From Flavobacteriales bacterium (GTDB lineage Bacteria; Bacteroidota; Bacteroidia; CAIKAF01): 64,000 nucleotides of DNA. How positions within the stretch are numbered: position 1 is the stretch's first letter; each line of letters starts with the position of its first letter. The notes beneath the pieces are model-generated. The model ran no database searches. It was not told where the DNA came from and was given only the letters and a program-made list of their open reading frames with translations. The translations under genes were made by a program, and so were the position numbers. This document shows positions 1,340-62,894 of this stretch, piece by piece. The DNA lies in the NCBI GenBank assembly GCA_026418175.1, contig JAOABX010000003.1, positions 117,084 through 181,083 of the forward strand, given 5' to 3'.

Positions 1340-1420
1340 TAGTAAGTTTCTTTTTCTTAATTTCAAGTTTTGTTTAAAAAAGAGATTATTAAACCTTTTA
1401 AATTAATCTAAAACAAGTAT

Positions 1421-3016
1421 ATGAAGCACTATTTTATACTGGTATTTTTTTCTGCAGCATTGCTTTTTTCATTAAAAGCACAAACCCCCACATGGTCTGA
1501 AAACATTGCGTGTATTATGTACACTAACTGTACACGTTGTCATAATCCCGGGGGTGTTGGATTATTTTCACTGGTAGATTATGCCGATGCCTATGCTGCT
1601 CGGTTTATTGTACGAGATGCAGTACTGAATAAAGTAATGCCTCCCTGGCCGCCTGATCCAACATATCAAACCTATGCCCACGAACGATTGCTTACCCAAC
1701 AGGAAATAGATTTAATTGTAAATTGGGTAAATGGTGGTGCGCCCGAAGGCCCTCCCTCTGTTGCGCCAACTCCGCCGGTATATACTTCGGCAAGTGAGCT
1801 AAGTCAAATTGATTGGTCAGGTGTTATTCCAACATACACGAATGGTGCCACTCAGGATGATTATCGCTGTTTTGTAATTCCTACGGGATTATCTACTGAT
1901 AAGTTTGTCAAATCCATTGAAATACTACCAGGAAACAGAAGCATTGTGCATCACGTATTGGTTTTCGCAGATACCTCAAGTCAGGTTTTAACGCTGGATG
2001 CCAATGATCCAGGACCTGGATACACTAGTTTTGGCGGTACAGGTAGTAATACATCTAAACTAATTGCAGCTTGGGTTCCAGGGTCAGAATATATAACTTA
2101 TCCTGCAGGCATGGGGGTAAAATTACGTGCCAATTCATACATTATAATGCAAATTCACTATCCGGCCGGAACTCAGGGCCAGATTGATTCAACCCGTATT
2201 AACATAGAATATGCTCCTGCAAGTGGAAGGGAAGTTTCTTTAGATCCGGTGCTCAATCATATTACCAACATTTCTCCTCCTTTAATTATACCGCCTAATA
2301 CTGTAAAATCTTTTGTGGAAGAATATACTATTCCTAGTGTAACTCCATTCTCTGATTTTTTTACTGTATTATCTGTAGCACCACACATGCATAAGGTTGG
2401 AACTTCTATAAAGTGTTATGCAGTGTTGCCATCAAACGATACCATTCCACTGATACATATTCCTAAATGGGATTTTAAGTGGCAGGGACAATATAATTTC
2501 CGACAGCCCAAAGTATTTCCGGAGGGAACTAAACTGCGTGCAGAGGCAGTGTATGATAACACCAGCAATAATCCCAATGCGCCGAATCCGAATAATTGGG
2601 TCTTTGCCGGTGAAGCAACAAATGAAGAAATGATGATGGTTTATTTTGCTTATCTCTATGCTTTTCCAGGTGATGAAAATATTATTGTTGATACAACTAC
2701 CGTTAAACCTACCTACAACAACTGTAAATTTGTAGGGTTAGAAGATTGGGGAATAAAAGAAGCCAGCATTCAGTTATATCCTAATCCTACGGATGGTTTT
2801 TCCATGCTTCGGTTTGAAGCCGAAAAAAGTAATGATTTGGAAATAAAAATTTGTGATATGCAAGGCAAAGTGGTATATCAATACCATACATTTGTGCACT
2901 CTGGGGTTTTCACGTATCCTGTGGAGGTGAATGCCATCCCGGCAGGGCAGTATTTTGTGGTGTTAGGATGGGGTAAGGAAAAATACACCCGGCCATTGAT
3001 TGTTGTTAAGAATTAA
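1421..3016 (+). CDS. Secreted cytochrome c domain fused to a PHM/DBH-like copper type II monooxygenase domain, with a T9SS C-terminal sorting domain
   Basis: There is a signal peptide and one CXXCH heme motif (CTRCH). The later motifs HHVLVFAD, MQIHYP, APHMHKVG and EEMMMVYF match the CuH (HH...H) and CuM (HxH...M) ligand pattern of peptidylglycine alpha-hydroxylating monooxygenase / dopamine beta-hydroxylase. The C-terminus (LYPNPTDGFSMLRF...YFVVL) is a type A T9SS sorting domain. Confidence 0.6.
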   Translation: MKHYFILVFFSAALLFSLKAQTPTWSENIACIMYTNCTRCHNPGGVGLFSLVDYADAYAARFIVRDAVLNKVMPPWPPDPTYQTYAHERLLTQQEIDLIVNWVNGGAPEGPPSVAPTPPVYTSASELSQIDWSGVIPTYTNGATQDDYRCFVIPTGLSTDKFVKSIEILPGNRSIVHHVLVFADTSSQVLTLDANDPGPGYTSFGGTGSNTSKLIAAWVPGSEYITYPAGMGVKLRANSYIIMQIHYPAGTQGQIDSTRINIEYAPASGREVSLDPVLNHITNISPPLIIPPNTVKSFVEEYTIPSVTPFSDFFTVLSVAPHMHKVGTSIKCYAVLPSNDTIPLIHIPKWDFKWQGQYNFRQPKVFPEGTKLRAEAVYDNTSNNPNAPNPNNWVFAGEATNEEMMMVYFAYLYAFPGDENIIVDTTTVKPTYNNCKFVGLEDWGIKEASIQLYPNPTDGFSMLRFEAEKSNDLEIKICDMQGKVVYQYHTFVHSGVFTYPVEVNAIPAGQYFVVLGWGKEKYTRPLIVVKN

Positions 3017-11217: not shown

Positions 11218-13065
11218 TTAGTGAAGAATTAGTTTTTCTACATGTCGAAATCCATTGGAAGTAAATTCCATTAGATATATTCCTTTACGAATGCCTGAAA
11301 AGTCAAATGACTGTATAATGCTTCCCTTGGGATTAGCAATGAGTTCTTCATACACTTGCTCACCAAGCATATTGAAAACCCGAACTTGTAAATCATTATC
11401 AAGTAATTGGATATGCAAATTTACCAACCCTTGGGATGGATTTGGATATACAACTATCTGATTAGCTTCAAATGGATTTTCCAGGTTGAGATAAAACTGT
11501 ATGCAATTTGATGTGTCATAGCAGCCGGCAGTATTGGTTGCTACAAGGCAATAAGTGCCATTAAATGCTGGAGTATAAGTGGGTTGTATGCCTTCAGGAG
11601 CAGGAATAATACTATAATTGAATCCATTAAAATAAAGCCACTGGTAGGTGTAATTCCCACTCAAAGCGGTGGTGAGGGTTCCATTACCATTTACGCTAAT
11701 ACCCACATTCGAAAATCCGGGAGGCGGCATGGGTAATGCACTGATAGTAATAGGTTGGGTGGTAACGTTACATCCGGATATTGGGTTAATAATTTTTACT
11801 TTGTACGATCCTGGCTGCCCGGTTGTATAGGTATTTGAATTACCGGTTTGAACCGTTAATGTATCATTCAGGAACCATTCATACAGCATGCCCGGATATA
11901 CACTTAAAGTGGTTGTTTCGTAAGCACAAATAGCTTGCAAGGTGGCTTCAATTGTATCATTTACAGGGGTTGGGTAAATGCGAATGGTATCAGTAACTAT
12001 GATTTGATTTGCTTGGACTAATCCAATAGTAAAACTTGCTGTGTACCAATTGGGATGATTGATGTTGTAAGTTCCAGGCCCTGTTACAGTTCCTGCATAG
12101 GGCGCAGCAATATCGTTTTGACTTATGGCGTCTACTTCTGTTACGTTGAGTGAATAGGAAGTACCTGTTAATACAAAATTGATATTGTTCCAAGTTGGTA
12201 AACAGTTGTCAGAAATTTCGGGTCCATTCCAGCTAGAAGATCCGGTAGTGAATGTAGGGCGAAGATCAGCATTACCGTTCGAACAGTTTAATTCTTCAAT
12301 ATCTCCGCACCACCAAGTTTGACCACAGGCATTGATGGTGAGTGAATTTAAACGCATATTGAAAACAGTAGTAGTACATGTAACCGGATAGTTTCCGGGG
12401 GCAGGATAAAACTGCGGTGGAGGGTTTTGGCCGTTATATGTATTACCATTTCCAAAATCCCAACTCCACTGGGTGATTTGTGGTAATGGGAAATTTAATA
12501 AAGGCGAAAAAGTAACCCATGCAGAGTCACAGGCTTGCGATGGATTAAATGAAAAGCCGGCATTGCTACCGCTTCCAAGAGTAATTGATAACGGTAAGTT
12601 AAAAACTTGATTTTGCGACTGGTTTCCAATAGGAGTTGATACGGTTCCTCGAATGGTTATTACAACCGTATAATTTCCTTGTGAAATAGGAGTTCCACAG
12701 AAATTTATGCTGGCCAAAGTACCATTGGGTTGCGGATTATAGGTACAATTTCCCACATTACAATTCCATGAAATACCTGTTGGGAGTCCGGTTACATTTA
12801 AAATTTTCATTTCAATAAAATCCAACGAATCAAATAAGCCGCCTGATTGTACACTGGCATCTACTCTTCTGGGAGCCCAAAAAGATATGGTGTCGCTATA
12901 ATACTGACCAACTACGCCATTGTTTAGCACGCCACATGGCCCCATTGTATTAATACAGGCAGGATTAGGAGAACCATTACATTGACTGTAAGCCGAATAA
13001 ATAATAAATAAACTAAAACTTAAAATTAAAATGGATTTTAAATAAACATGTAAATTTTTTTTCAT
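11218..13065 (-). CDS. Secreted PKD-like repeat protein with a type A T9SS C-terminal sorting domain; paralog of 58521..60386
   Basis: Likely ATG at 13063-13065 (MKKNLHVYLKSILILSFSLFIIYSAYSQ signal peptide; the track start at 13071 is TTG). The C-terminus VVYPNPSQGLVNLHIQ...GIYLMEF is a T9SS CTD. Block-wise similarity to the 58521..60386 product (e.g. NAGFSFNPSQACDS vs NAGFSMAPPLGCEP; WSWDFGNGNTYNGQNPPPQFYPAPGNYPV vs YSWNFGNMTQSNAQNPPPVLYSTAGNYPV). Confidence 0.7.
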   Translation of the reverse strand: MKKNLHVYLKSILILSFSLFIIYSAYSQCNGSPNPACINTMGPCGVLNNGVVGQYYSDTISFWAPRRVDASVQSGGLFDSLDFIEMKILNVTGLPTGISWNCNVGNCTYNPQPNGTLASINFCGTPISQGNYTVVITIRGTVSTPIGNQSQNQVFNLPLSITLGSGSNAGFSFNPSQACDSAWVTFSPLLNFPLPQITQWSWDFGNGNTYNGQNPPPQFYPAPGNYPVTCTTTVFNMRLNSLTINACGQTWWCGDIEELNCSNGNADLRPTFTTGSSSWNGPEISDNCLPTWNNINFVLTGTSYSLNVTEVDAISQNDIAAPYAGTVTGPGTYNINHPNWYTASFTIGLVQANQIIVTDTIRIYPTPVNDTIEATLQAICAYETTTLSVYPGMLYEWFLNDTLTVQTGNSNTYTTGQPGSYKVKIINPISGCNVTTQPITISALPMPPPGFSNVGISVNGNGTLTTALSGNYTYQWLYFNGFNYSIIPAPEGIQPTYTPAFNGTYCLVATNTAGCYDTSNCIQFYLNLENPFEANQIVVYPNPSQGLVNLHIQLLDNDLQVRVFNMLGEQVYEELIANPKGSIIQSFDFSGIRKGIYLMEFTSNGFRHVEKLILH

Positions 13066-13071
13066 GGTCAA

Positions 13072-15654: not shown

Positions 15655-17808
15655 ATGTTGAAGCAGATTAAAAAAATTATAAAAGTAACCGGAATTGGTT
15701 TTCTTATTTCAATAGCTCTGCTTTTCATATCCATGATTTTGTTACAGTTTGTTTTTTATCATCAGGTTTCCGGCAGACTAAAACAAATAATCGAGGGGAA
15801 CGAAGATATATCTATCCAAGTGGGTAGCCTGAATTTTAATCTATTTAAAGGGAATATTGCACTTACCCAGGTAATAGTCCATGATACTTCAGGCTTTTTT
15901 TATGTGGCTTGTGATTCAATGCTAATTAAAGGGATTAATCCAATTCCTCTTATTTTTAACAATACGCTTAGCATACATAAACTCCTTTTATCTAATGGTA
16001 GTATTGAAGTTAATACCAATAAAAAGAGTTTCAATATTGAAAAAAGGAAATCTTCCTGGATAGTTCATAAAACATTCATAAAAAATTTTGATGTTAAAAT
16101 TAATCATCCGCAAGTTGCAGTTCGACTCAAACTAGGGGCGTTTCAAACAGAGAAAGTCAATTCACGTAGTACAAAATTTTTACCTTTCAGTGTTGCAGAT
16201 GCTACAATATCCAATATTTTACTGAGTCGGGAAGAAAATTTTTTCTCACTGGATAGTATTCATATTCATTTAAAGGATGACTTATCCTCTATTCAGTTAA
16301 AAAATTTCAATGTTCTTGCGTTATCAAAAGTTTTAAAAAAAAGCTATGATACAGTTGTTTCACCGGTTAATGAATTTATAATTGATAAAATACAGATAGG
16401 CATTCCGGTTTATTATTTTAAATATGCTGATTTAAATAAGATACCAAGCATTGAAATTCCATTTTTGCATGTTAATGGCTTGCTAGTTAATTTGCAAAAA
16501 TATACCGAAGCCTTCAAAACGAAATCATCGGTTGTGTTTAATTCATTCCCGTTTGATTTTAATGTAAAGGAATTGATGATTCATAATGGAAGATTAAAGG
16601 TTTTGCATGATTCAATTATTCAGTTTGATTTTCTATTAAAATATTTAAAAGCAAGAAATTTACGAACAGATGCAACGTATAAAATTTATCCTTTAATAGC
16701 TGATGCAGTTGATGTTTCATTAAATGATATTTATTTTGGATTTAAAGATCAAATGCATCAAATAAATATTCATAAATTAAATTATGCTTCCGGGCAGAAC
16801 AGATTTCAAGCCGATAAAATAAATATTGGATCTTCGTTAGAAACGGAGGAATATTTTAAGCTGAAAAAATTTCAAACAGATATGCCTTCATTTGCATTAG
16901 GCACTATGGTGCTTGATGGATTAAATATATCAGCCCTTTTAAATAATAATCAATTTGTTTTTCGTAAAGTATGGGCTGATACCTTGGAATTAAAAATGAC
17001 AAGGGATAAAAATTATCCCTACGATTTAAAGAATTTTCCCCCAATGATTCAGGATCAAATTCTACAATTACCATTTATATTTTCTGTAGATACTGTATCA
17101 GTACAACATGGAGAAATAACTTATTATGAAATTCCGCAAGGAGCTACTCTTGATGATGCCGGAATGTTTCAGTTTACATCCGCCTCGCTAAATATGTATC
17201 AATGTACCAATGACACAAACAGGTTGCATCATAATGATACCTTGATGATACATTTTCGAGGTAAACTATATGGGCAAGGAGTTCTTAATGTTTTTGTTGA
17301 TATTCCGCTGCTTTCCAAATCATATTGGCATCGGGTGTATGGAACTATCGGAAAGTTTAATGCCCGTGAATTTAATCGTATTACCGTACCTGCAGTAGGT
17401 GTAAAATTAAAAGGTACAGTGAATGGGGGAGAATTTTATTTTGAAGCTAACAATGAATTTTCAACCGGGAATGTGGAATTATTGTTTGAAAAATTAAAAG
17501 TATCGGTACTTACTCAAACCGGTAGTGCAGCTAAATCACAAACAGATATATTAAAATCACTTGTAGCCAATGTGTTTATGGTACACGATAATCCTGAGCC
17601 AGGAAAAGAAGTAATGGTTGGAAAGATATACTATAAACGGAATGTGAATCGCTGGATGATAAATTTTTGGTGGAAGAGTTTACTGCAGGGTGTTCGTTCC
17701 ATTGTATTTGCCAAAGAGGTACAGCTTCGTGAGATGTCAGCATCTTTTAATGAATATAAAAAATTGCGTAAACAACGCGAAGAAATGGACCAATTAATGC
17801 AAGAATAA
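15655..17808 (+). CDS. Membrane-anchored large exported protein, possibly AsmA-like / DUF748-type outer-membrane biogenesis protein
   Basis: 717 aa; a single N-terminal TM anchor (GIGFLISIALLFISMILLQFVFY) then a long low-complexity region predicted as beta-rich. First gene of a tightly spaced three-gene + strand operon. The family assignment is weak. Confidence 0.3.
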   Translation: MLKQIKKIIKVTGIGFLISIALLFISMILLQFVFYHQVSGRLKQIIEGNEDISIQVGSLNFNLFKGNIALTQVIVHDTSGFFYVACDSMLIKGINPIPLIFNNTLSIHKLLLSNGSIEVNTNKKSFNIEKRKSSWIVHKTFIKNFDVKINHPQVAVRLKLGAFQTEKVNSRSTKFLPFSVADATISNILLSREENFFSLDSIHIHLKDDLSSIQLKNFNVLALSKVLKKSYDTVVSPVNEFIIDKIQIGIPVYYFKYADLNKIPSIEIPFLHVNGLLVNLQKYTEAFKTKSSVVFNSFPFDFNVKELMIHNGRLKVLHDSIIQFDFLLKYLKARNLRTDATYKIYPLIADAVDVSLNDIYFGFKDQMHQINIHKLNYASGQNRFQADKINIGSSLETEEYFKLKKFQTDMPSFALGTMVLDGLNISALLNNNQFVFRKVWADTLELKMTRDKNYPYDLKNFPPMIQDQILQLPFIFSVDTVSVQHGEITYYEIPQGATLDDAGMFQFTSASLNMYQCTNDTNRLHHNDTLMIHFRGKLYGQGVLNVFVDIPLLSKSYWHRVYGTIGKFNAREFNRITVPAVGVKLKGTVNGGEFYFEANNEFSTGNVELLFEKLKVSVLTQTGSAAKSQTDILKSLVANVFMVHDNPEPGKEVMVGKIYYKRNVNRWMINFWWKSLLQGVRSIVFAKEVQLREMSASFNEYKKLRKQREEMDQLMQE

Positions 17809-25149: not shown

Positions 25150-25279
25150 ACAATTTTTACTGATTAGATAATTCACCTATTATAAAACTTAGTTTTTACC
25201 AGCTGTTTCTTAATTTTTATATGCTAAACACTTGCATTTTTCTATGTTTTTATTAAACTTAGTATTTTGATTAGCCCAT

Positions 25280-27265
25280 ATGAAAGATTTTAAAAAAATA
25301 TTTTCTGTTTCATTCATTGCAGTTTTGTTTGCTTCGTATGTCTTAATAAATTCAATGAATGAATTAGGATTTTACCGTTCCGACTCCTTGCAAAACTTTG
25401 TTGAAGAGCCTGTTGATAATTCATTTCATACAAATAAAGAAAAGCAAGTATTAAAGAAATTATTAAGTAACCGTTCAGTATTGGAACCCGGTCAATATTT
25501 TCATAATTCGCAGTTATGTGGTACTTGCCACGGGTATGATCCTACCGGAAATTCCAGCCATGATTCACAAGGAAATGATGTGAATTTGCACGATGATTGG
25601 ATGTCAAGTATGATGGCACTATCGGCCAAAGATCCTTTCTGGAGAGCTAAGGTAAGTCACGAAATATTAGTAAATCCTGGAATTTCATTAGAAATTCAAA
25701 ATAAATGTACTTCTTGCCATGCACCCCAGGGTCATTATACCGCTTTATTTAATGGACAGACGCATTATACCTTGGCTGATTTGTATAATGATACGTTAGG
25801 ACTTGATGGGGTTTCTTGTGTTGCATGTCATTCAATTGGTCCCAATGGATTGGGCAATATGTTTACCGGTCATATCCCCTATGATACGTTGTTTCAACTT
25901 TATGGGCCATTCATAGACCCATTAACCGGCCCCATGCAACTATACACAGGCTTTACTCCTACATATAGCCCACATGTAAGCGAGGGAAGATTTTGTTCTC
26001 CTTGTCATACACTAATAACTCAATCAGTTGATTTAAACGGAATTCCTACAGGCAGATCTTTCGTAGAGCAAGCAACCTATCATGAATGGGTTAATTCTAA
26101 TTTTTCATTGGATTATATAAGTTGCCAGCAATGCCACATGCCACGCTTACAAGATAGTATTATTATTGCTAAAGACATGTCAACCAAACGATTCCCCTTC
26201 AATCAGCATATTTTTATGGGTAGTAACGAATTTATGCTGAAACTAATTAAAAATAATAAAGCTGATTTGGGCGTGGAGGTACCTGATTCAAATTTTGATT
26301 CAACCATCGAGGCCACATTGGTTAATTTACAGCAAAAAACATTAACCATGGACTTGATTGTTGATAGTGTTACGTTTGACACAGCATATTTTTCTGTGAA
26401 ATTGGTAAATCTGGCTGGGCATAAATTTCCATCCGGTTATCCTAGCCGTAGAGCAATTTTACAATTTGCGGTAGTAACATTGACCGGCGATACATTATTT
26501 AAATCCGGTTTTTTTGATGGTAACTATGAAGTACAAGGGATAAATTCAACGTTTGAACCGCATTATGATATTATTTCTCAACCTGATCAGGTTCAAATTT
26601 ATGAAATGGTGATGGGGGATGTTAATGGAAATAAAACTACAGTATTATTACGAGCAGATACCATGCTGAAAGATAACCGATTAGTGCCGGAGGGCTTTTC
26701 AACTTCACATCCTGTGTATGATACAACCCGAATTATATTGGGTATTGCAGATGACGATTTTAATAAGTTTAATAATGGTAATGAAGGGAGTGGTTGGGAT
26801 ATTATTCAGTACAGGGTGCCAATCAACGGATATAGTCAGCCATTCAATGTAGTGTCACGGATTTATTATCAGGCTGTACCTCCTGGTTATCTTGCTGAAA
26901 TGTTTAGCCATACGAGCAATGAAATTGATCTTTTTAAAGATTTGTATACAGCGGCTGATAAAGAGCCGGTGCTGATGGCAGAAAGAACCATTCAAGGAAT
27001 TGCCCTTAGTGTTCAAAATCAACCGCAAATAGCTCCTACCATTTGGCCTGATCCTACTTCCGATGGTTGGATTAATATTCGTTGGAAAGATATTCAAGCC
27101 GATGAAGTGGTGGTTATGAATGCAAATGGGCAGATCGTTACAATTTATCACATTCAGCCAGGAATTCAAACAGTTAGAATCCAACTTCCGGAATCATCTG
27201 GCATATATTTGGTTGATGTGCGTGCTTCTGGAAGGCGGTCTGTACAAAAGGTTATCCGAAAATAA
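25280..27265 (+). CDS. Secreted pentaheme c-type cytochrome with a type A T9SS C-terminal sorting domain
   Basis: N-terminal hydrophobic signal/anchor; five CXXCH motifs in the first ~300 aa (CGTCH, CTSCH, CVACH, CSPCH, CQQCH); a ~280-aa middle region with no cysteine motifs; C-terminus IWPDPTSDGWINIRW...GIYLVDVRASG is a T9SS CTD. Confidence 0.65.
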   Translation: MKDFKKIFSVSFIAVLFASYVLINSMNELGFYRSDSLQNFVEEPVDNSFHTNKEKQVLKKLLSNRSVLEPGQYFHNSQLCGTCHGYDPTGNSSHDSQGNDVNLHDDWMSSMMALSAKDPFWRAKVSHEILVNPGISLEIQNKCTSCHAPQGHYTALFNGQTHYTLADLYNDTLGLDGVSCVACHSIGPNGLGNMFTGHIPYDTLFQLYGPFIDPLTGPMQLYTGFTPTYSPHVSEGRFCSPCHTLITQSVDLNGIPTGRSFVEQATYHEWVNSNFSLDYISCQQCHMPRLQDSIIIAKDMSTKRFPFNQHIFMGSNEFMLKLIKNNKADLGVEVPDSNFDSTIEATLVNLQQKTLTMDLIVDSVTFDTAYFSVKLVNLAGHKFPSGYPSRRAILQFAVVTLTGDTLFKSGFFDGNYEVQGINSTFEPHYDIISQPDQVQIYEMVMGDVNGNKTTVLLRADTMLKDNRLVPEGFSTSHPVYDTTRIILGIADDDFNKFNNGNEGSGWDIIQYRVPINGYSQPFNVVSRIYYQAVPPGYLAEMFSHTSNEIDLFKDLYTAADKEPVLMAERTIQGIALSVQNQPQIAPTIWPDPTSDGWINIRWKDIQADEVVVMNANGQIVTIYHIQPGIQTVRIQLPESSGIYLVDVRASGRRSVQKVIRK

Positions 27266-27339
27266 TCTATCAAATATTTGGTTTTTAGTAATTTATTTAT
27301 AAACTTAGTATTCTAGTCTAATCTAATACCTCTTCGCTT

Positions 27340-30312
27340 ATGAAAACATTTACAAAAAAGTTATCAGTTTTATCCATCGGATTGATAGCTGGAGCAGCTA
27401 CAGCCCAAATAAGTTTTACAGATGGAAATAGTTTATTACATTCTGAAACTGGCGTACTAGGTAGTAATGCAAATATTTTCAGCGGTAATGCAGTATGCGT
27501 AGTAGACGTTAATTTTGATGGGTATGATGATATTGTCAAGTTAGATAATGGGCGATATGTACGAATTGAATATCAACAATCAGGAGGAACATTCACCCAC
27601 CAATATATTGGCGATTTTGGAACTATGACCAGCTGTTGGGGAATGAGTGCCGCCGATGTTGATAAAAATGGTTATGCTGATATACTTTTTAATGGTGGTT
27701 CTCAGGCTCGTTTAATGAAACTCAACAATACGGGTACAGGGATATTGGGTTCTATTATTAATCTGCCTAATGGTAATATTTTTAGTCAAAATGGAAATTT
27801 TTGCGATGCAAACAATGATGGTTGGTTAGATATTTTTATGTGTAATGACGTAGATGAAAGTAGATTGTGGTTAAATGATGGAACTGGTAATTTCCCGACA
27901 GAAAATAATAATACATATATAAATTTTGATTTAACTCCAGGTACGGGTCCTGGCCCTGCTCTTTCCGGGGGGCCACCAAATCATCAATATGATGAATCAG
28001 GAAATTATAGTAGTATATGGACTGATATAGATGATGATGGAGATGTAGATTTGTACATAGTTCATTGTAGGCAAGGAGCTAACCCAGGAGATTTACGTCG
28101 TACCAATGTATTGTTTAGAAACAATGGCAATGGTACATATACTGGAATTAACCAATCCGCACAAATAGGAATTTTAGCCAGCAATGATCAGGATTGGACA
28201 GCCAGCTTTGGTGATATTGATAATGATGGAGATTTTGATGTATTTATGACAAAACATGATAAGGCTCAAGAGTGGTACACTAATAATGGTAATGGTACTT
28301 TTAGTGCCACTGCTTCTGGGTCTTTTACTTATCCTAATAATACGGCTATTCAATCATTGTACGAAGATTTTGATAATGATGGATTTGTGGATTTATTATT
28401 TACCGGAATGGGTGTTCAACAAAGGCTTTATCGTAATAACGGGAATGGTACCTTTACACAAGTTCCTAATGCTACCCTTGGTTTTGGAAGTAATAATTTT
28501 GCATCATTTGCTACAGGTGACTTAAATCATGATGGAAAAATAGATATTTATGCTAGCTATCATACCAGCTATAATACACCTAGTTCAAGCATTGTAGACC
28601 GGCTTTGGTTAAATTCAACATCTAATAGTAATAACTTTTTAACATTAAATTTAAAAGGAACTACCAGTAACAAAGAAGGAATAGGTGCACGTGCATATAT
28701 TTATGGAGCCTGGGGAGTACAGACCCGTGAAGTTCGATCCAGTGAAAGTTATGGTACGCTTAATAGTTACAGCTTGCATTTTGGTTTAGGTACTGCTACT
28801 CAAGTTGATTCAATTGTTGTTCGCTGGCCCTCTGGCCAAAAATCGAAAATTGTTTGTCCTGTTTCAGCCAATCAATTTGTAAACATTGTAGAAGGTACGC
28901 CTACTTGCTTTTTAGCATGTTCTTCAATTAATATTACCCCCAGTGGTTCAACAACTATTTGTCCGGGAGATGTTCTTACGTTGAGCGCTCCGACAGGTGC
29001 TTATACATATCTTTGGTCTAATGGTGCTACCACACAATCGATCGATGTAAATACTGCAGGTACTTACAATGTAATTGTATCATCAGGTGCAGGATGCTCT
29101 GCTACAGCACCAAGCATTGTTGTTACGATGAATCCCCCAGAAAACCCGGTTATTACTGCGCAGGGTGATTTGGAGTTCTGCCCGGGTGGAAGTGTAGTGC
29201 TTGAAGCTGCTGGAGGTTCTCCGGTTTGGAATACGGGTGAAACTACATCTACAATTACAGCAACACAAGATGGAGAATACTATTTCTATATTCAAGGCCT
29301 TTGCCAGCCATGGTACTCAGATACGCTCGTTGTAACATTGTTTGATAATACCCCCCCGTCTGCTTCTGGAACTACTATAACCTCTCCGCAGTCTGTTACA
29401 TTAAATGCTACAGGTACCAATGTGAGCTGGTGGGATGCACCTTCAGGGGGTAATCTCTTGGGAACTGGAAACACGTTTGTTACTCCTGTATTGAGCAGTA
29501 CAACAACTTATTATGTTCAAGATGATCATCAATACAATGGGTCAATAGGTAACGTAGGCTCAACAGATATTGCATCGGCCGGGTATTCAACAGGAACAAT
29601 TAACGGATATTTAATTTTTGATGTCCTAACCAATTGCCGGTTGAACTCTGTTGAGGTATCTACCGATTCTGTTGGTACCAGAGTAATTGAATTACGCGAT
29701 GCCTCAGGAGCTGTTTTACAAGCTCTTTCTGTAAATATTCCTGCTGGAACATCTACCGTTGATTTGGGCTTTGATTTAACCCCCGGTACTTATCAGCTAG
29801 GTACCAATACCGCACAAAACAATTCTGAATTTGGTGCAAATTCTCCATTTTTGAAGAGAAACCAAAGTGGAGCTTCTTATCCGTACGTACTTACTGATGT
29901 GCTTTCTATAACAGGTGGACATACAGGTACTGCCCCAACTTCTGCTGCGTACTATTATTTCTATAATTGGGAAGTGGAAGTATTACCCATTGTTTGTCCT
30001 AGTGATCGCACTCCAGTTACTGTAACATATGTTAATACTTCAGGAATAGATAATGAAGAAGCCTCTCAATTCTTAATATATCCTAACCCTGCTACTAACT
30101 GGGTGAATGTTGAGTTTAATGTTTCGGAAACCGCACCTGCTCAACTTGAAGTAACTGATATGACCGGTCGTAAAGTGGTGTTAATAGATTTAGGAACAGT
30201 ACATGGTAAAGTAACTCGTATATTGCAAACGGATGGATTTGCTCAAGGTGTTTACAATGTAACACTTACCGTAGGTGAAAAAACGTATCATACGCTGGTT
30301 GTAATTAAATAA
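27340..30312 (+). CDS. FG-GAP/VCBS seven-bladed propeller plus ASPIC/UnbV domain protein (CRTAC1-like) with Ig-like repeats and a T9SS C-terminal sorting domain
   Basis: Seven D-x-D/N-x-D-G-x-x-D Ca-binding blade motifs (DVNFDGYDDIV, DVDKNGYADIL, DANNDGWLDIF, DIDDDGDVDLY, DIDNDGDFDVF, DFDNDGFVDLL, DLNHDGKIDIY). UnbV_ASPIC signature KEGIGARAYIYG...LHFGLGTATQVDSIVVRWPSGQ. CTD IYPNPATNWVNVEF...GVYNVTL. Confidence 0.75.
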   Translation: MKTFTKKLSVLSIGLIAGAATAQISFTDGNSLLHSETGVLGSNANIFSGNAVCVVDVNFDGYDDIVKLDNGRYVRIEYQQSGGTFTHQYIGDFGTMTSCWGMSAADVDKNGYADILFNGGSQARLMKLNNTGTGILGSIINLPNGNIFSQNGNFCDANNDGWLDIFMCNDVDESRLWLNDGTGNFPTENNNTYINFDLTPGTGPGPALSGGPPNHQYDESGNYSSIWTDIDDDGDVDLYIVHCRQGANPGDLRRTNVLFRNNGNGTYTGINQSAQIGILASNDQDWTASFGDIDNDGDFDVFMTKHDKAQEWYTNNGNGTFSATASGSFTYPNNTAIQSLYEDFDNDGFVDLLFTGMGVQQRLYRNNGNGTFTQVPNATLGFGSNNFASFATGDLNHDGKIDIYASYHTSYNTPSSSIVDRLWLNSTSNSNNFLTLNLKGTTSNKEGIGARAYIYGAWGVQTREVRSSESYGTLNSYSLHFGLGTATQVDSIVVRWPSGQKSKIVCPVSANQFVNIVEGTPTCFLACSSINITPSGSTTICPGDVLTLSAPTGAYTYLWSNGATTQSIDVNTAGTYNVIVSSGAGCSATAPSIVVTMNPPENPVITAQGDLEFCPGGSVVLEAAGGSPVWNTGETTSTITATQDGEYYFYIQGLCQPWYSDTLVVTLFDNTPPSASGTTITSPQSVTLNATGTNVSWWDAPSGGNLLGTGNTFVTPVLSSTTTYYVQDDHQYNGSIGNVGSTDIASAGYSTGTINGYLIFDVLTNCRLNSVEVSTDSVGTRVIELRDASGAVLQALSVNIPAGTSTVDLGFDLTPGTYQLGTNTAQNNSEFGANSPFLKRNQSGASYPYVLTDVLSITGGHTGTAPTSAAYYYFYNWEVEVLPIVCPSDRTPVTVTYVNTSGIDNEEASQFLIYPNPATNWVNVEFNVSETAPAQLEVTDMTGRKVVLIDLGTVHGKVTRILQTDGFAQGVYNVTLTVGEKTYHTLVVIK

Positions 30313-30334
30313 ATTGTAATGACGGTATTTAAAA

Positions 30335-30359
30335 GGGCAGGATTTCCTGCCCTTTTTTA
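30335..30359 (+). terminator. Rho-independent terminator after 27340..30312
   Basis: Hairpin gggcagg-attt-cctgccc followed by TTTTTTATTTT. Confidence 0.65.
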
Positions 30360-30459
30360 TTTTAAAATGCCGCGATTACAGCTAATCCAAGATATTAGAG
30401 TTGTGTAGTAGTAAGATGGATTTAAAGTTTAAAATAATACACCAACGAAGGTATGAATA

Positions 30460-32697: not shown

Positions 32698-34197
32698 CTA
32701 TCTTTTAATCAATGATTGTTGATGTATTTTTTCGCTACTGATTAGTTGCATGAGATAAATGCCCGGAGCAAGGTCATCAATCATGATAATTGAATTTGTA
32801 TTATTACTACTTAAGTTGGTTGATTTAATCAATTTTCCATCCATTGAATAAAAGTTTAATTTTTCAAATGAATGATTTGATATGGATGGTACAATCACAT
32901 AATTATCAGCCGGATTTGGATAAATCATCAAAGTAGTTTCTAACTCATCATTTATACCTACAAATGGATTTATTATTACCGTACGACAAGTACTTGCTTC
33001 ACACCCTCCGATACCTGTTACAGTTAAACAAACCGTAAATGTATCAACCGAAGTATAGACATGAGTAGGATTTTGAAGCGTTGAAGTATTTCCATCTCCG
33101 AAATCCCATGACCAGGAAGTGCCACCTGTTGAGTTATCTATGAATTGTACATTAAAGCCAGAAACGTTGCTATTAAAGTTAGCACTTGGATATGCTCCAA
33201 TGATCAAATTGCTTCCATTATCAGTTCCATTCATCGAAGGATTGGAGGAAACTACCCGGATGCGATACCCTGTTCCGGCAGCAGTGCTTCCAGGTATTGT
33301 TGCATTTATTGATCCTGATGTGGTGGATGTGATACTGCCGATTGGAGTTGGAGAAGCAAAAGATCCCAAGGCATCAGAAAGTTGAGCTGTAAAAACATTA
33401 CCTGAATTAAATGTTCCTGATGCTGAATAATTAACTACAACTGCATCATTGGGACATAGTGTATCTTCAGAAACAGAGGTAGTTGTAATAGTATTTGTTA
33501 CAGCAGCAGTTCCTGAAATTACAATTTCATCTACTGAAAGGGGGGGGTCTGATGCGCTGAACGAAGAATTATTTACAAAACGAAATCCAAAGCGCAAGGT
33601 AGCTTGATTGTTCCAAATAGCATTCGTTTGAGTTAAAGTTTGCCAAGAGGAAACATTGTAAATATTTCCTAATTGTAATTGCCAGGTAGCTCCCCCATTG
33701 GTACTATAATATAATTCACCATAGGTGGCAGAAGAGCCTGCGCATAAATAATAACAGGAAAAAGTAACGTTGGTATATCCAAGCGTTGAAATATCGTTGC
33801 TCATCTTAGCAAAATAATTTTGATTACCATTACATAAAAACCCACCATCCGACGCTAAAAAGTTAGCATTACTGATACCCGCAGCTTGTGCTGCTTGATT
33901 TACGATATGTAAATAATTACTATTCGGTGAGCCAGTTATTGCTCCCGGTTGACTGGGAGTATTTCCAACGGAAGTAGAAAAACCAAAGCAAGGTTCATTA
34001 AATGATCCACCGTTATAGCTGTTATTAACTACCCAAAGATTATACCCGTTAGTAACTGAACTTACATCTGATGAATTAAGGGTAAATGTGTGAGTAGCAC
34101 CATTAAAATTTTCAGAATACAAGGTAGTTTGCGAATATATTTTTATTAATGGAAATCCTAAAGCAAATAATAATAGTAGAAGTTTTCTCATAATCAT
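32698..34197 (-). CDS. Secreted T9SS cargo protein: N-terminal ~240-aa domain, one copy of the GNVFTAQLSD module, a PKD-like domain (WSWDFGDGNTS) and a T9SS CTD
   Basis: Signal peptide; aa 266-333 GNVFTAQLSDALGSFASPTPIGSITSTTSGSINATIPGSTAAGTGYRIRVVSSNPSMNGTDNGSNL; PKD signature WSWDFGDGNT; CTD IYPNPADNYVIVPS...GIYLMQL. Confidence 0.7.
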   Translation of the reverse strand: MIMRKLLLLLFALGFPLIKIYSQTTLYSENFNGATHTFTLNSSDVSSVTNGYNLWVVNNSYNGGSFNEPCFGFSTSVGNTPSQPGAITGSPNSNYLHIVNQAAQAAGISNANFLASDGGFLCNGNQNYFAKMSNDISTLGYTNVTFSCYYLCAGSSATYGELYYSTNGGATWQLQLGNIYNVSSWQTLTQTNAIWNNQATLRFGFRFVNNSSFSASDPPLSVDEIVISGTAAVTNTITTTSVSEDTLCPNDAVVVNYSASGTFNSGNVFTAQLSDALGSFASPTPIGSITSTTSGSINATIPGSTAAGTGYRIRVVSSNPSMNGTDNGSNLIIGAYPSANFNSNVSGFNVQFIDNSTGGTSWSWDFGDGNTSTLQNPTHVYTSVDTFTVCLTVTGIGGCEASTCRTVIINPFVGINDELETTLMIYPNPADNYVIVPSISNHSFEKLNFYSMDGKLIKSTNLSSNNTNSIIMIDDLAPGIYLMQLISSEKIHQQSLIKR

Positions 34198-36723: not shown

Positions 36724-39700
36724 ATGAAGAAACTTTACTTGTGCTTAATTACATGTATGCCCATGATTATATATGGGCAAAACCAACAAATCAATAACAG
36801 CAATTTTGAGCTTTGGCAAAATTTAGGACAAAATACTGAAAAGCCCAATGACTGGAATTCGTTTATGAATGCTTCAGGGTCTTTTGCTGGTTTTGCTGCA
36901 CAGCAAATTAGACGATCAACTGTAACTAGACCAGGTTCAACTGGTCAATATAGCGCTGTTATTTGGTCAAGAAATGCTTTAGGAACGAATGCCAATGGGA
37001 ACATGACTACAGGAAGGATAAATATGGGAAGCACTACTCCCTCTAGTTCAAGCAACTATAATTATACGCAGCGCTCAAATTCAACATTTTATGAAACGAT
37101 GACGGATTTGCCTGATTCTATTATTTGCTGGGTGAAATTTAAACCAGTAAATGTATCAGGTACAGATTCAGCTCGCATGCGGGCTGTTGTGCACGGTGAT
37201 TATGATTTTCGTGATCCCAGCGATGCTGGCTCTCAGGCTCAGATTGTACGTCATGCTACGCGAAATTTTCGTGGCCCCCACAATCAATGGCAGCGCTTGA
37301 GTGTTCCATTTATTGCATCAGGACCTGCTACAACTCCTTATTACATCCTGGTAACGTTTACTACCAATAAAACACCCGGTGGAGGAAGTTACAATGACTC
37401 TTTATGGATTGATGATGTATCGCTGGTATATAATCCAACCTTGGCAACCGGTGTAATAAATCCTACTACTTATTATGTAACTCCTACTGCAGGAACTGCC
37501 ATCTCTGTTCCATTTACAGCAACCGGAACATATAATCCGGGAAATGTATTTACTGCTCAACTTTCTGATGCTTCTGGTTCATTTGCCAATCCCATTGTAC
37601 TTGGAACTTTAACCGGTACTACTTCTGGTACAATCAATGGAATAATACCTGCTGGCACACCTACTGGCACAGGATACAGGGTAAGGGTGGTTTCTTCTAA
37701 CTATCCAGTAACAGGTTCAAACAATGGAACAAACTTAACGATCAATTTAGTAACAACTTCAATAGCTCCTGCTAGTGCTCAAACTATTGAAGCGGGAGTA
37801 AACGGGACAGCTTTAACTGTTGCTGAGTCTGTTATACCTTCTTCTCGTGAATGGAAATACAGTACGATCAGCGGTGGGCCTTATACATCATTTGTTCCGG
37901 CTCAAACAGGCTCGTCCTATGTACCAAATTTTTCGACAGCAGGAGCCTATTATGTGGTTTGTGAATCTTCATACCCTGGTCTTACTGCTATTTCTAATGA
38001 AGTACTCATCAATGTGGTTGATAATACCATAACTCCGGCTTCCCCTCAAAGCATATTGATTGGTGTTAACGGAACTACGCTAACTGTATCTGAAACACCC
38101 GCTGGAACAAGTCGTGAATGGAAGTATTCTACTACTTCCGGAGGGCCTTATAATTCCTTTGTTCCTGCACAAACTGGAACTACTTATACTCCGAATTTTT
38201 CTTCTGCGGGTACCTACTATGTTGTTTGTCAAAGTGTAATTAATGGAATTACAGTTACTAGTAATGAGGTAGTTATCTCAGTAAATAATTTAACCCTTTC
38301 AACGGGCACAATCTCAGGTTCGCCGTTTGAGTTTAGTGCTTCGGCTCCTAATGCATCTGTATCTGTTCCTTATACTGTAGGCGGTACAGGAAGTTTTAAT
38401 GTAGGCAATGTGTTTACAGCTCAACTTTCAGATGCATTCGGATCATTTGCTTCTCCAGTGAATATAGGTAGCATAACTTCAACAAACAGCGGAGTAATTT
38501 CTGCAACAATTCCGTCTTCCACACCTGCAGGCACTGGATATAGAATTAGGGTAGTAGCTAGTTCGCCTGCTATTTTGGGTTCAGATAACGGATCTAATCT
38601 TGTAGTTGACCAGTTTAATAATTCCATAACACCACCTGGACCTCAAACTTTTGTGTTTTCCGGTTCGGGAACAACTCTTACAGTCAATGAATCACAAAAC
38701 ACTATTGCCAGAGAATGGAGATATGCCTCAACTCCTGGTGGTCCTTATTCATCCTTTGTTCCTGCACAAACAGGAGTACAATACACTCCTTCGTTTCCCT
38801 CTGTTGGAACATATTATGTGGTTTGTGCATCTACCAACCAATACAATGATGAAGTAATTAGCAATGAAGTGATTTGTAATGTTACTAATAGCATTACACT
38901 TACAACTACCACTGTAACAGGTGCCCCTTTTTATGTTTCACCCAGTGCGAATGTTACCGGTACGGTTTCATTTACTACTGATGTGATATATGGAACAGGG
39001 AATGTGTTTACAGCAGAATTATCTGACCTAAATGGTAGTTTTGCAACACCTGTATCAATAGGGTCATTATCCGGAACAGCATCAGGCACAATCAATATTA
39101 CAATACCTAATAACACCCCATCAGGGAATGCATATCGGATTCGGGTTGTGTCATCCAATCCACCACTTACCGGTACTCCCAATACTTCCAATTTATCTGT
39201 TGTTAATTTTGAAGTAAATGCATCACCAACCGATACTCAAAATATTGTGGTGAATACTCCCGGTACTATGATTACTGCTACTTCTTCTCATCCTGGAGTG
39301 TCATATGAGTGGAAATATAAGACCTTCCCCACAAATCCATGGAGTTCATTTTCTCCATCAGAAACCTCTAGTTCTTATACTCCCTTATTTACTAATACCG
39401 GAGGTTTTTATGTTGCTTGTATGGTAGTAAATACATGGAATGATACCTTATATACAGATCAAACAGTAATTCTTGTTTCCAACAGTCCCGGATCAGTTGA
39501 AGAACATGGGCTAAGTCAGGTATTTGGATATTTTCAGCAAGATCAGCTTGTAATAAATCTTTCTTCCTTGGCATTACAGCCTCTACAGATTACATTGTTC
39601 AATATGGCAGGTCAACAACTGGCCATGCATCAAACTTTGGGTGGTACAATTTTTAATTTTCCTGTTATGTTGCCAGCCGGTATTTATCACCTGCGCATAG

Positions 39701-39744
39701 ATGCAACCGAAGGTATCAGAAATCTCAAGATAATTAAACAATAA
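36724..39744 (+). CDS. Large secreted modular repeat protein (T9SS cargo): N-terminal domain, then alternating A (GNVFTAQLSD, ~68 aa) and B (REWKYST, ~85 aa) modules, then a T9SS CTD
   Basis: Signal peptide; three A modules (aa ~273, 560, 760) and four B modules (aa ~347, 436, 635, 833); CTD LFNMAGQQLAMHQ...GIYHLRIDA. 1006 aa. Confidence 0.75.
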   Translation: MKKLYLCLITCMPMIIYGQNQQINNSNFELWQNLGQNTEKPNDWNSFMNASGSFAGFAAQQIRRSTVTRPGSTGQYSAVIWSRNALGTNANGNMTTGRINMGSTTPSSSSNYNYTQRSNSTFYETMTDLPDSIICWVKFKPVNVSGTDSARMRAVVHGDYDFRDPSDAGSQAQIVRHATRNFRGPHNQWQRLSVPFIASGPATTPYYILVTFTTNKTPGGGSYNDSLWIDDVSLVYNPTLATGVINPTTYYVTPTAGTAISVPFTATGTYNPGNVFTAQLSDASGSFANPIVLGTLTGTTSGTINGIIPAGTPTGTGYRVRVVSSNYPVTGSNNGTNLTINLVTTSIAPASAQTIEAGVNGTALTVAESVIPSSREWKYSTISGGPYTSFVPAQTGSSYVPNFSTAGAYYVVCESSYPGLTAISNEVLINVVDNTITPASPQSILIGVNGTTLTVSETPAGTSREWKYSTTSGGPYNSFVPAQTGTTYTPNFSSAGTYYVVCQSVINGITVTSNEVVISVNNLTLSTGTISGSPFEFSASAPNASVSVPYTVGGTGSFNVGNVFTAQLSDAFGSFASPVNIGSITSTNSGVISATIPSSTPAGTGYRIRVVASSPAILGSDNGSNLVVDQFNNSITPPGPQTFVFSGSGTTLTVNESQNTIAREWRYASTPGGPYSSFVPAQTGVQYTPSFPSVGTYYVVCASTNQYNDEVISNEVICNVTNSITLTTTTVTGAPFYVSPSANVTGTVSFTTDVIYGTGNVFTAELSDLNGSFATPVSIGSLSGTASGTINITIPNNTPSGNAYRIRVVSSNPPLTGTPNTSNLSVVNFEVNASPTDTQNIVVNTPGTMITATSSHPGVSYEWKYKTFPTNPWSSFSPSETSSSYTPLFTNTGGFYVACMVVNTWNDTLYTDQTVILVSNSPGSVEEHGLSQVFGYFQQDQLVINLSSLALQPLQITLFNMAGQQLAMHQTLGGTIFNFPVMLPAGIYHLRIDATEGIRNLKIIKQ
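37540..39480 (+). repeat. Intragenic tandem modular repeats (order A-B-B ... A-B ... A-B) inside 36724..39744
   Basis: Approximate repeat-unit DNA spans: A 37540-37745, B 37762-38028, B 38029-38290, A 38404-38610, B 38627-38880, A 38995-39200, B 39220-39480. The amino-acid copies are ~50-75% identical. Confidence 0.6.
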
Positions 39745-62105: not shown

Positions 62106-62894
62106 ATGGAAAAAAAGTTTTACCAAGGTTTAATAGCAATAGCATTGCTTCCATTTTTTTATCAGCTAAACTTTGCCTTTGGTGGTGATGGTTCCTCTAC
62201 AATTACTATAAAAAAACAAGATCAAAAAGAAATTCATACCATAGCCGTTCAAGTAGCATCGATTGCTGATGTGGATATAAATAATCTACAGATATTATCG
62301 GCCACTCACACTCTTGTAAATGTTAAAGATGTTACTATTACAGGCAACATCATTCATGTTACTATTGATATTGTTCCAACGGCCAAAGGAGACAAAGAGG
62401 ATGAAGATATTATTGATGTTATCGAAATTGTTGGAATAGATAATATTACAGGAGTATTTATTAATCCCGGGGGGCAGCAAAATACAGCTACCGCATATGT
62501 AAATAATGGAACTGATGATGACGCTAACGAACACCATACCGATCATTTAAATACATTGCCCACAGTGTCTGAAATGGTTATATTAAATCATCATCAAACT
62601 GAACAGGTCCCCATTGCTTCACCAAATTCTGGTACAACGTCGTTTGTAAGAGATATGTTAGTATATCCTAATCCTGCAAAAGATGAACTTGGTGTTGTAA
62701 CAGTTGGAGAAATTTTGGGCAAATCAATTGTTATTGTGGATATGAGTGGTAAAGTACATAAAGAAATAATTGTGGCAGAAAATACTCATAAAACAACCAT
62801 TGATATTTCTGATTTGCCGGCTGGAATTTATTTAGTAAATCTCTCGGCCACTAATGGCAAAACGTACATCCAAAAATTTTATAAAGTAGATTAA
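62106..62894 (+). CDS. Small secreted protein with T9SS C-terminal sorting domain
   Basis: 262 aa; signal peptide; acidic His-rich middle region (DDDANEHHTDH); CTD MLVYPNPAKDELGVVTV...GIYLVNL. Confidence 0.55.
   Translation: MEKKFYQGLIAIALLPFFYQLNFAFGGDGSSTITIKKQDQKEIHTIAVQVASIADVDINNLQILSATHTLVNVKDVTITGNIIHVTIDIVPTAKGDKEDEDIIDVIEIVGIDNITGVFINPGGQQNTATAYVNNGTDDDANEHHTDHLNTLPTVSEMVILNHHQTEQVPIASPNSGTTSFVRDMLVYPNPAKDELGVVTVGEILGKSIVIVDMSGKVHKEIIVAENTHKTTIDISDLPAGIYLVNLSATNGKTYIQKFYKVD

Follow-up and report, generated by a model that had tools for sequence, protein, structure and literature searches.

A Conserved Gene Pair Encoding a Predicted T9SS-Exported Pentaheme Cytochrome and a CRTAC1-like Propeller Protein in Bacteroidota

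Introduction

Do Bacteroidota export multiheme cytochromes by the type IX secretion system (T9SS), and what could such proteins do outside the cell? T9SS cargo described so far comprises mainly hydrolases, adhesins, and motility proteins. The question is raised by two adjacent genes in a 64-kb stretch from a Flavobacteriales bacterium (64,000 nucleotides (nt) of contig JAOABX010000003.1, positions 117,084 to 181,083; hereafter, the window). The first open reading frame, ORF1, encodes a c-type cytochrome with five heme-binding motifs, and the second, ORF2, encodes a protein that resembles human CRTAC1; both end in a C-terminal domain (CTD) of the T9SS type. An earlier note on this DNA had pointed to the pair and remarked that surface multiheme cytochromes of Bacteroidota are not well described. 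Our full-text literature searches for T9SS or type IX secretion together with multiheme or c-type cytochromes or extracellular electron transfer agree with this remark, as they returned no paper describing such cargo.

We tentatively propose that ORF1 and ORF2 together constitute a conserved module of two genes that serves extracellular redox chemistry, a reading that we consider quite possible, yet short of probable. The fold family of the cytochrome is already known from c552, MccSep, and PtdA. New are the T9SS-tagged form, an active-site region free of selenocysteine and cysteine, the near-obligate pairing with a CRTAC1-like protein in Bacteroidota, and the size of the family.

A Five-Heme Cytochrome with a T9SS Sorting Domain

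ORF1 comprises exactly five CXXCH motifs and a sorting domain scored above the TIGR04183 cut-off (Table 1), as the earlier note had described. Invariance was counted among the 120 closest homologue clusters (48–87% identity). Exactly five CXXCH motifs were present in 120 of 120, which is far beyond chance, and all five were invariant, where the earlier note had set three conserved motifs as the minimum for its description to hold. The loop GHKFP[ST]GYP was likewise invariant in all 120. A TIGR04183-type CTD was matched in 24 of 24 aligned homologues, and the family profile furthermore hit a CTD in 8glk_D, a T9SS substrate complex (E 4e-4); the Pfam model PF18962 scored slightly below its cut-off on the C-terminus of ORF1 (25.4 versus 27 bits). 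All other Pfam and NCBIfam matches were weak and local, which applies to Cytochrome_C7, MtrC/MtrF domains II/IV, and NF040886 ("ExtKL", E 1.4e-4). A protein from a metagenome-assembled genome (MAG) that is 100% identical to ORF1 is listed at NCBI as [quoted passage not shown]. As this name mentions the sorting domain only, annotation by name would miss the cytochrome.

Table 1. Features of the gene pair and of the surrounding window (positions in the window; invariance among the 120 closest homologue clusters of ORF1).
Feature	Position	Strand	Basis or remark
13-mer TAAACTTAGTATT	25254..25266	+	14 nt before ORF1 ATG; possible shared promoter/operator element
ORF1, pentaheme c-type cytochrome with T9SS CTD, 661 amino acids (aa)	25280..27265	+	ORF call, domain matches, CXXCH count
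N-terminal basic and hydrophobic segment, residues 1–29, MKDFKKIFSVSFIAVLFASYVLINSMNEL, presumed Sec signal peptide	25280..25366	+	Read by eye
Heme motif 1, CGTCH, residues 80–84 (C80)	25517..25531	+	Invariant; aligns with MccSep heme 1
Met111-Met112 pair	25610..25615	+	Invariant; Met112 aligned to conserved MccSep His (SLHARS)
Heme motif 2, CTSCH, residues 143–147 (C143)	25706..25720	+	Invariant; equivalent to MccSep catalytic heme 2
Heme motif 3, CVACH, residues 180–184 (C180)	25817..25831	+	Invariant; in register with MccSep
Heme motif 4, CSPCH, residues 239–243 (C239)	25994..26008	+	Invariant; in register with MccSep
Heme motif 5, CQQCH, residues 282–286 (C282)	26123..26137	+	Invariant; in register with MccSep
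Ig-like beta-sandwich domain with insertions, ~residues 351–587	26330..27040	+	
Loop GHKFPSGYPSRR, residues 380–391, opening the Ig-like domain	26417..26452	+	Invariant; Tyr387 at MccSep Sec325 position
T9SS type-A CTD of ORF1, residues 588–661	27041..27262	+	TIGR04183, 33.9 bits (cut-off 23)
Intergenic spacer, 74 nt	27266..27339	+	No terminator; second 13-mer copy at 27300–27312
ORF2, CRTAC1-like FG-GAP/ASPIC protein with Ig-like repeats and T9SS CTD, 990 aa	27340..30312	+	
Predicted signal peptide of ORF2, residues 1–22 (...AGAATA/QISF)	27340..27405	+	Read by eye; typical A-x-A site
Seven-bladed FG-GAP beta-propeller with seven DxDxDG-type Ca loops	27457..28659	+	FG-GAP_3 match and loop motifs
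UnbV/ASPIC domain, residues 447–513	28678..28878	+	PF07593, 63.2 bits (cut-off 23.4)
Three Ig-like (CHU_C-associated, Ig_7) repeats	28897..29529	+	PF19081, E 3e-15, three stretches
Conserved ~175-aa domain, residues 731–905	29530..30054	+	Best Pfam match only E 0.079
T9SS type-A CTD of ORF2, residues 913–990	30076..30309	+	TIGR04183, 43.9 bits (cut-off 23); PF18962, 42.7 bits
Intrinsic-terminator-like hairpin with T-run, 11-bp stem, 6 GC pairs	30331..30366 (hairpin 30331–30356)	+	19 nt past ORF2 stop
Other ORFs with T9SS CTD	1412-3013, 11221-13071, 32698-34197, 36724-39744, 56597-58429, 58521-60386, 62106-62894		

A CRTAC1-like Propeller Protein as Neighbor

For ORF2, the earlier note had listed a seven-bladed calcium-binding FG-GAP propeller, an UnbV/ASPIC domain, Ig-like repeats, and a further T9SS CTD, and each of these was found. 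FG-GAP_3 (PF13517) matched with 119 bits over five stretches. Seven regularly spaced calcium loops of the type D-x-[DN]-x-[DN]-G, at residues 56, 106, 156, 229, 292, 343, and 394, are consistent with seven blades, and their Asp and Gly residues were invariant among 21 homologues, as were Q23 and F26 directly downstream of the predicted signal peptide cleavage site. The conserved ~175-aa domain is invariant at many positions, including F760, R781, Y818, N827, R840, Y872, Y873, W877, and C886.

Human CRTAC1 (PDB 9etn), a cartilage protein investigated as an osteoarthritis marker, was matched by ORF2 with an E-value of 8.8e-7, and the alignment included the ASPIC region; the label "CRTAC1-like" is therefore fair. 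Like human CRTAC1 and the bacterial "CRTAC1 family proteins", ORF2 has a calcium-binding FG-GAP propeller followed by UnbV/ASPIC. However, it carries three Ig_7 repeats, the ~175-aa region, and the T9SS CTD in addition, and Pfam detected no EGF-like domain in it. To our knowledge, no biochemical function has been assigned to any member of the ASPIC/CRTAC1 family. Subunits of hydrazine synthase presumably carry c-type hemes. In Planctomycetota, CRTAC1-family FG-GAP genes are located between genes for homologues of this enzyme's alpha and beta-gamma subunits (PMC12758564). Given the heme content assumed above, this arrangement would independently link the propeller family to c-type heme proteins.

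Conservation of the Gene Pair

A scan with one genome per species revealed at least 591 species genomes with an ORF1 homologue. The best 80 carrier genomes were all MAGs, nearly all of them labeled Bacteroidota (Flavobacteriales, Chitinophagales, Saprospiraceae, Bacteroidia), and three labels appeared implausible. Titles of carrier MAGs (L015, L016, L020) include "uncultured Bifidobacteriaceae", "uncultured Bifidobacterium", and "uncultured bacterium"; the T9SS tag on the protein makes the first two implausible, and both probably stem from taxonomic errors in the records.

For synteny, we considered as informative the 59 loci that extend for 3 kb or more downstream of the cytochrome gene. The ORF2 family was present in 54 of them, and the propeller gene was located directly downstream on the same strand in 52 (median gap ~65 nt), so that the synteny elsewhere in Bacteroidota on which the earlier note had made its case depend is borne out. 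In two Saprospiraceae loci, the propeller gene is convergent to the cytochrome gene. When all ORFs of 84 loci were clustered, recurrence was limited to the cytochrome and FG-GAP/ASPIC families, every other cluster being found in seven loci or fewer. One Chitinophagaceae genome has the pair intact, though all flanking genes differ from those of the window, and adjacency and orientation were kept down to ~47% cytochrome identity while the remaining neighbors changed. The reverse check, starting from an ORF2 homologue with 42% identity, revealed a cytochrome gene in front of it at a distance of 17 nt. The identities of ORF1 and ORF2 homologues to the window pair co-varied (Pearson's r = 0.75, Spearman 0.50, p 1e-5), which shared phylogeny alone would also yield. 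At one locus, a T9SS-tagged protein with a lysyl-oxidase domain is encoded immediately 3' of the pair in convergent orientation (L173, 8048-10423, minus strand).

Regarding the arrangement in the window, the earlier note was right about the adjacency of the two genes, whereas the gap is a spacer of 74 nt and not of 75 bp as claimed. The only convincing terminator-like hairpin follows the second gene, again as noted earlier, and none comparable was found in the spacer. Since the spacer is free of a terminator, the co-transcription suggested by the earlier note is plausible as judged from the sequence. However, the 13-mer TAAACTTAGTATT occurs in two exact copies in the whole window, 14 nt and 27 nt before the starts of ORF1 and ORF2, respectively, and may be a promoter or operator element shared by both genes. 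Its core TAAACTTAGTA(TT), of 11–13 nt, was kept before both genes in relatives with 84–87% protein identity (L087, L088), whereas conservation had ceased in one with 62%. With an element upstream of each gene, separate but co-regulated promoters are equally possible. Matches in a sigma-70 promoter scan, a model ill-suited to Bacteroidota promoters, were no commoner than in shuffled sequences.

The pairing could also be accidental: ORF1 and ORF2 might be neighboring T9SS cargo with independent functions, e.g., one an adhesin and the other a protein related to heme or iron, whose adjacency was inherited without coupling. T9SS cargo is indeed dense in the window, with nine genes in 64 kb; the two genes do not overlap, being separated by ~65–74 nt, and each has its own conserved upstream element. 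Moreover, the partner is missing in five of the 59 loci, and no cytochrome gene adjoins a longer ORF2 paralogue of 1053 aa with 40% identity (L172, 3810-8162), which is instead divergent to genes for a PorP/SprF and an OmpA/TPR protein. However, an accident would hardly explain why adjacency and orientation persist while all other neighbors change, and the common upstream 11–13-mer suggests co-regulation. A distant lineage without T9SS tags pairs both families as well, in a different orientation: in an organism with 70% GC (L089, 6215-9761; L090), a pentaheme relative with 32% identity to ORF1 is divergent to a 547-aa FG-GAP/ASPIC protein, both with apparent lipoprotein signal sequences as read by eye. 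We therefore regard mere adjacency as very unlikely. Near the L089 pair, there are also genes for a Rieske protein and for a copper-binding protein similar to MopE.

Fold and Comparison with c552 and MccSep

A first AlphaFold2 model of ORF1 from a 24-sequence alignment, in which residues 2–29 formed one helix, was dropped owing to its low confidence (predicted local distance difference test (pLDDT) 59, heme domain < 50); its Foldseek matches were mostly generic Ig/FN3 tandems. The model from the 120-sequence alignment reached a pLDDT of 89.5. In this model, a five-heme helical domain is followed by an Ig-like beta-sandwich stem, which places ORF1 in the superfamily of c552, MccSep (ExtKL), and PtdA. 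The closest solved structure is the low-potential pentaheme c552 of Thermochromatium tepidum (PDB 5ze8), on which the fold search superimposed ORF1 as a whole. The NrfB/c554-like heme packing considered in the earlier note was not recovered, and NrfA, also referred to as c552, gave weak local motif matches only (E 0.3–0.6).

T. tepidum c552, which reportedly contains an Ig-like domain (Chen et al. 2019), has no known function, and has been named as a relative of PtdA. We take it to be periplasmic. It is a soluble protein of 385 residues without a T9SS domain, whereas ORF1 has ~150 extra residues inserted in the module as well as the CTD; a profile scarcely picks up the sequence similarity between the two (E 0.29), and, in contrast to ORF1, no CRTAC1-like partner is known for c552. 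PtdA, a pentaheme and beta-sandwich protein encoded beside the porin PtdB in the ptdABCDEFG cluster of marine Alphaproteobacteria and others, is likened to ORF1 by its description. Its cluster continues with the porin, tetra- and decaheme proteins, and a flavin adenine dinucleotide (FAD) oxidoreductase, none of which is encoded near ORF1.

The most informative comparison is with MccSep/ExtKL (GSU2937-2936) of Geobacter sulfurreducens, a pentaheme selenoprotein and homotetrameric polysulfide reductase (PDB 9wt8; bioRxiv 10.1101/2025.11.18.688581). Its five-heme helical cap sits on an Ig-like stem; His122 and Cys239 ligate heme 2, and selenocysteine Sec325 reaches the distal pocket of this heme from the stem, both Cys239 and Sec325 being essential (bioRxiv 10.1101/2025.11.18.688581). 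The MccSep family is defined by this selenocysteine/cysteine site and occurs mainly in Desulfobacterota and Nitrospirota; Bacteroidota or tyrosine forms are not mentioned (bioRxiv 10.1101/2025.11.18.688581).

A PDB sequence search with ORF1 retrieved 9wt8, aligning NHAGHSIPDG-U-P of MccSep with NLAGHKFPSG-Y-P. Profile comparison by hhalign gave probabilities of 97.7–99% and E-values of 1e-12 to 3e-17 over ~360 columns with the five heme motifs in register, although the MccSep profile was shallow and imperfect, with three homologues stitched by hand. Column-shuffled and reversed controls scored 13–21, compared to 101 for the real alignment, and the CXXCH-free C-terminal part alone still aligned (E 4.7e-6). 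NF040886 was matched by 21 of 24 ORF1 family members, all below its cut-off (best E 5e-10); ORF1 itself scored 20.6 bits against an equivalog cut-off of 250. 9wt8 was not among the matches of two fold-library searches, and the entry is possibly missing from those libraries. Genes resembling ExtKL/MccSep in public assemblies, from which the three homologues were stitched (L084-L086), are broken at the in-frame TGA (selenocysteine) codon and by frameshifts; as a consequence, protein databases hold only fragments, and a search of an index of 5.8 billion proteins with a 99-aa MccSep fragment returned just ten short ones. In L085, a rhodanese gene lies upstream and multiheme genes downstream of the ExtKL/MccSep-like gene.

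ORF1 and MccSep thus share five CXXCH motifs in order, the AGHxxPxGxP loop in register, and the cap-and-stem architecture. However, Sec325 is replaced by Tyr387, Cys239 by the variable R259 beside a four-residue insertion, and the conserved His of SLHARS, a candidate distal heme ligand, by the invariant Met112. Furthermore, ORF1 is T9SS-tagged and from Bacteroidota, whereas MccSep is described as periplasmic. The pair extends the newly characterized MccSep/ExtKL family to a branch free of selenocysteine and cysteine.

Does ORF1 itself act as an enzyme? It could be a surface or secreted multiheme oxidoreductase for small substrates, whether inorganic or organic (e.g., oxyanions of sulfur or nitrogen, peroxide, metal ions). 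As in MccSep, the reaction would take place at heme 2, in a pocket that the GHKFPSGYPSRR loop forms, with ORF2 merely docking ORF1 or presenting the substrate. The homology to a proven enzyme with the active-site loop in register argues for this. The loop is also the most conserved element of the family: among 47 diverse members with a mean identity of 32%, the invariant positions were the five CXXCH motifs, G-H-K-x-P-x-G-x-P-x-R, H310, H428, EQ..EW, and KDNR..P, with the Met-Met pair nearly invariant. The T9SS subfamily shows no variation at Tyr387, R390, and R391, which is reminiscent of the Tyr/His/Arg pockets in NrfA-type enzymes, and the invariant His residues of the family outnumber those needed for heme ligation. 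On the other hand, both residues essential in MccSep are absent. M112, H232, H310, H381, and H428 are invariant candidate distal ligands, five for five hemes, so that conserved His and Met would suffice for five six-coordinate hemes; Met112 in particular may be a distal ligand, giving a His/Met-ligated heme. Such a pattern would agree with a protein that solely transfers electrons and has one such heme. In the wider family, the selenocysteine-equivalent position is Y, F, I, or H and never C (150 representatives inspected), which weakens Tyr387 as a catalytic stand-in and argues for a role in electron transfer. Finally, c552, the closest solved structure, has no known catalytic function, and a surface enzyme would still require an electron partner. 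Catalysis by ORF1 itself is thus, in our view, unlikely.

The Wider Pentaheme Family and Extracellular Electron Transfer

When 1.84 billion representatives were searched exhaustively with a profile, 914 clusters were returned at E ≤ 1e-30. Many members comprise 540–620 aa, consisting of the heme and Ig-like parts without a CTD. Others are fused to further domains. Two carry a GSDH beta-propeller ahead of the pentaheme module (P0316, and P0328 with an additional discoidin domain; L091, 4722-8150). We take the GSDH domain to be of the pyrroloquinoline quinone-dependent sugar dehydrogenase type. Further fusions contain DUF642, TSP3, and dockerin domains (P0380), a TauE membrane domain (P0354), or an extra cytochrome c domain in a protein of 1919 aa (P0336). 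Taken with the strict pairing, the dehydrogenase-propeller fusions give the ASPIC/CRTAC1 family its first lead on function that can be tested. A third component shared by L089 and L091 was ruled out, as their downstream genes (794 and 744 aa) have no mutual similarity.

The earlier note had considered extracellular electron transfer, and ORF1 could accordingly be the terminal outer-surface cytochrome of a respiratory route of this kind, functioning like MtrC/OmcA or ExtKL. Respiratory electrons would go to Fe(III) or Mn(IV) in insoluble form, to humics, or to electrodes, or else electrons would be taken up, with ORF2 as a mineral- or surface-binding adhesin. The cell surface is the predicted location of ORF1, and members of its fold superfamily repeatedly adjoin outer-membrane porins, as PtdA does with PtdB. 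ExtKL belongs to the Geobacter extHIJKL cluster, in which ExtI is presumably a porin. Furthermore, a gene for a ~380-aa monoheme cytochrome c (PF13442) directly precedes the pentaheme gene in 13 of 79 distant loci, and the ~250-aa C-terminal part of the monoheme protein looks like an outer-membrane beta-barrel (alternating pattern, FQFWK end). These loci, with a GC content of ~54–69%, are L124, L129, L137, L150 (4706-5857), L151, L154, L155, and six more. With the decaheme MtrC/OmcA proteins of Shewanella, ORF1 has the predicted surface location and multiple c-type hemes, putatively bis-ligated in ORF1 as well, in common, and its weak Pfam matches to MtrC/MtrF domains II/IV include PF22113.

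Nevertheless, ORF1 stands outside the OmcA/MtrC decaheme family (TIGR03507, 16.1 bits, far under the cut-off of 209), and MccSep/ExtKL is described as periplasmic. Porin-cytochrome conduits of the MtrCAB, Pcc, or ExtHIJKL type have adjacent porin and periplasmic multiheme genes; across the 84 Bacteroidota loci, no porin, periplasmic cytochrome, or quinol dehydrogenase gene was conserved beside the pair. In the window, the neighbors are housekeeping genes, encoding a histidine kinase, an enoyl-CoA hydratase, tyrosyl-tRNA synthetase, epimerases, and a rhodanese-domain UPF0176 protein. In addition, aerobic heterotrophy is typical of the hosts (Flavobacteriales, Chitinophagales, and Saprospiraceae of lake, sludge, and soil origin). 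Respiratory extracellular electron transfer is therefore decidedly unlikely.

Proposed Function

In the two-gene module that we propose, both proteins would be made with signal peptides of the general secretory (Sec) pathway and exported by it, and five hemes would be attached covalently to ORF1 in the periplasm. The T9SS would carry both proteins to the surface via their CTDs, where they would be attached or released. ORF1 would mainly serve as a five-heme wire or store of electrons, probably with one high-potential His/Met heme. We favor this role over catalysis because the selenocysteine/cysteine pair is lost and the invariant His and Met residues are enough for all five hemes. ORF2, with its Ig-like and ~175-aa domains, would bind or act on an extracellular substrate, and ORF1 would move electrons, in either direction, between ORF2 or this substrate and an external donor or acceptor. 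If so, the T9SS would also export proteins carrying five covalently bound hemes, and common Bacteroidota of freshwater, soil, and sludge may perform redox chemistry at or beyond their own surface.

Several points weigh against this proposal. Heme ligation was judged from sequence, and ORF1 may have an open catalytic heme site. Adjacent T9SS cargo genes do not prove a complex, the propeller partner is absent from five of the 59 informative loci, and the ORF2 paralogue without a cytochrome neighbor, as well as the lack of a conserved porin, periplasmic cytochrome, or quinol dehydrogenase, count in the same direction. Moreover, we know of no redox cofactor or enzymatic activity in the FG-GAP/ASPIC family. 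Beyond the closer relatives, the FG-GAP/ASPIC pairing was found in just 4–5 of 80 distant metagenome loci, mostly Bacteroidota-like. On this count, the pairing was ruled out as a universal feature of the cytochrome family; the sensitivity of the hidden Markov model was adequate, as it detected the L089 partner.

A stronger reading takes the pair as a self-contained extracellular oxidoreductase, in which the T9SS-exported holo-pentaheme protein would exchange electrons with a redox-active or substrate-holding propeller, widespread in aerobic environmental Bacteroidota. We consider this unlikely. If true, it could account for surface redox reactions of polymers, metals, or humics, or for the supply of electrons to secreted copper oxygenases, and it would provide the first biochemical function for the ASPIC/CRTAC1 family.

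Further T9SS Cargo in the Window

With nine ORFs ending in T9SS CTDs, the density of cargo genes in the window is very high (Table 1), suggesting that export tags of the T9SS type are used extensively by the organism. PKD-domain proteins and an M43 peptidase are among the nine products. At E ≤ 1e-5, Pfam matched nothing in two large ORFs, 15655-17808 (plus strand, 717 aa) and 36724-39744 (plus strand, 1006 aa); the latter, one of the nine, has a weak CTD-like C-terminus. Regarding other exported proteins, the ORF at 1421-3016 (plus strand, 531 aa) caught our interest. Besides a T9SS CTD, it has the two halves of a PHM/DBH-like monooxygenase of the copper type II class as well as one N-terminal CTRCH motif followed by MPPW, and may be a second exported redox protein with heme c and copper, one that would need an external electron donor.

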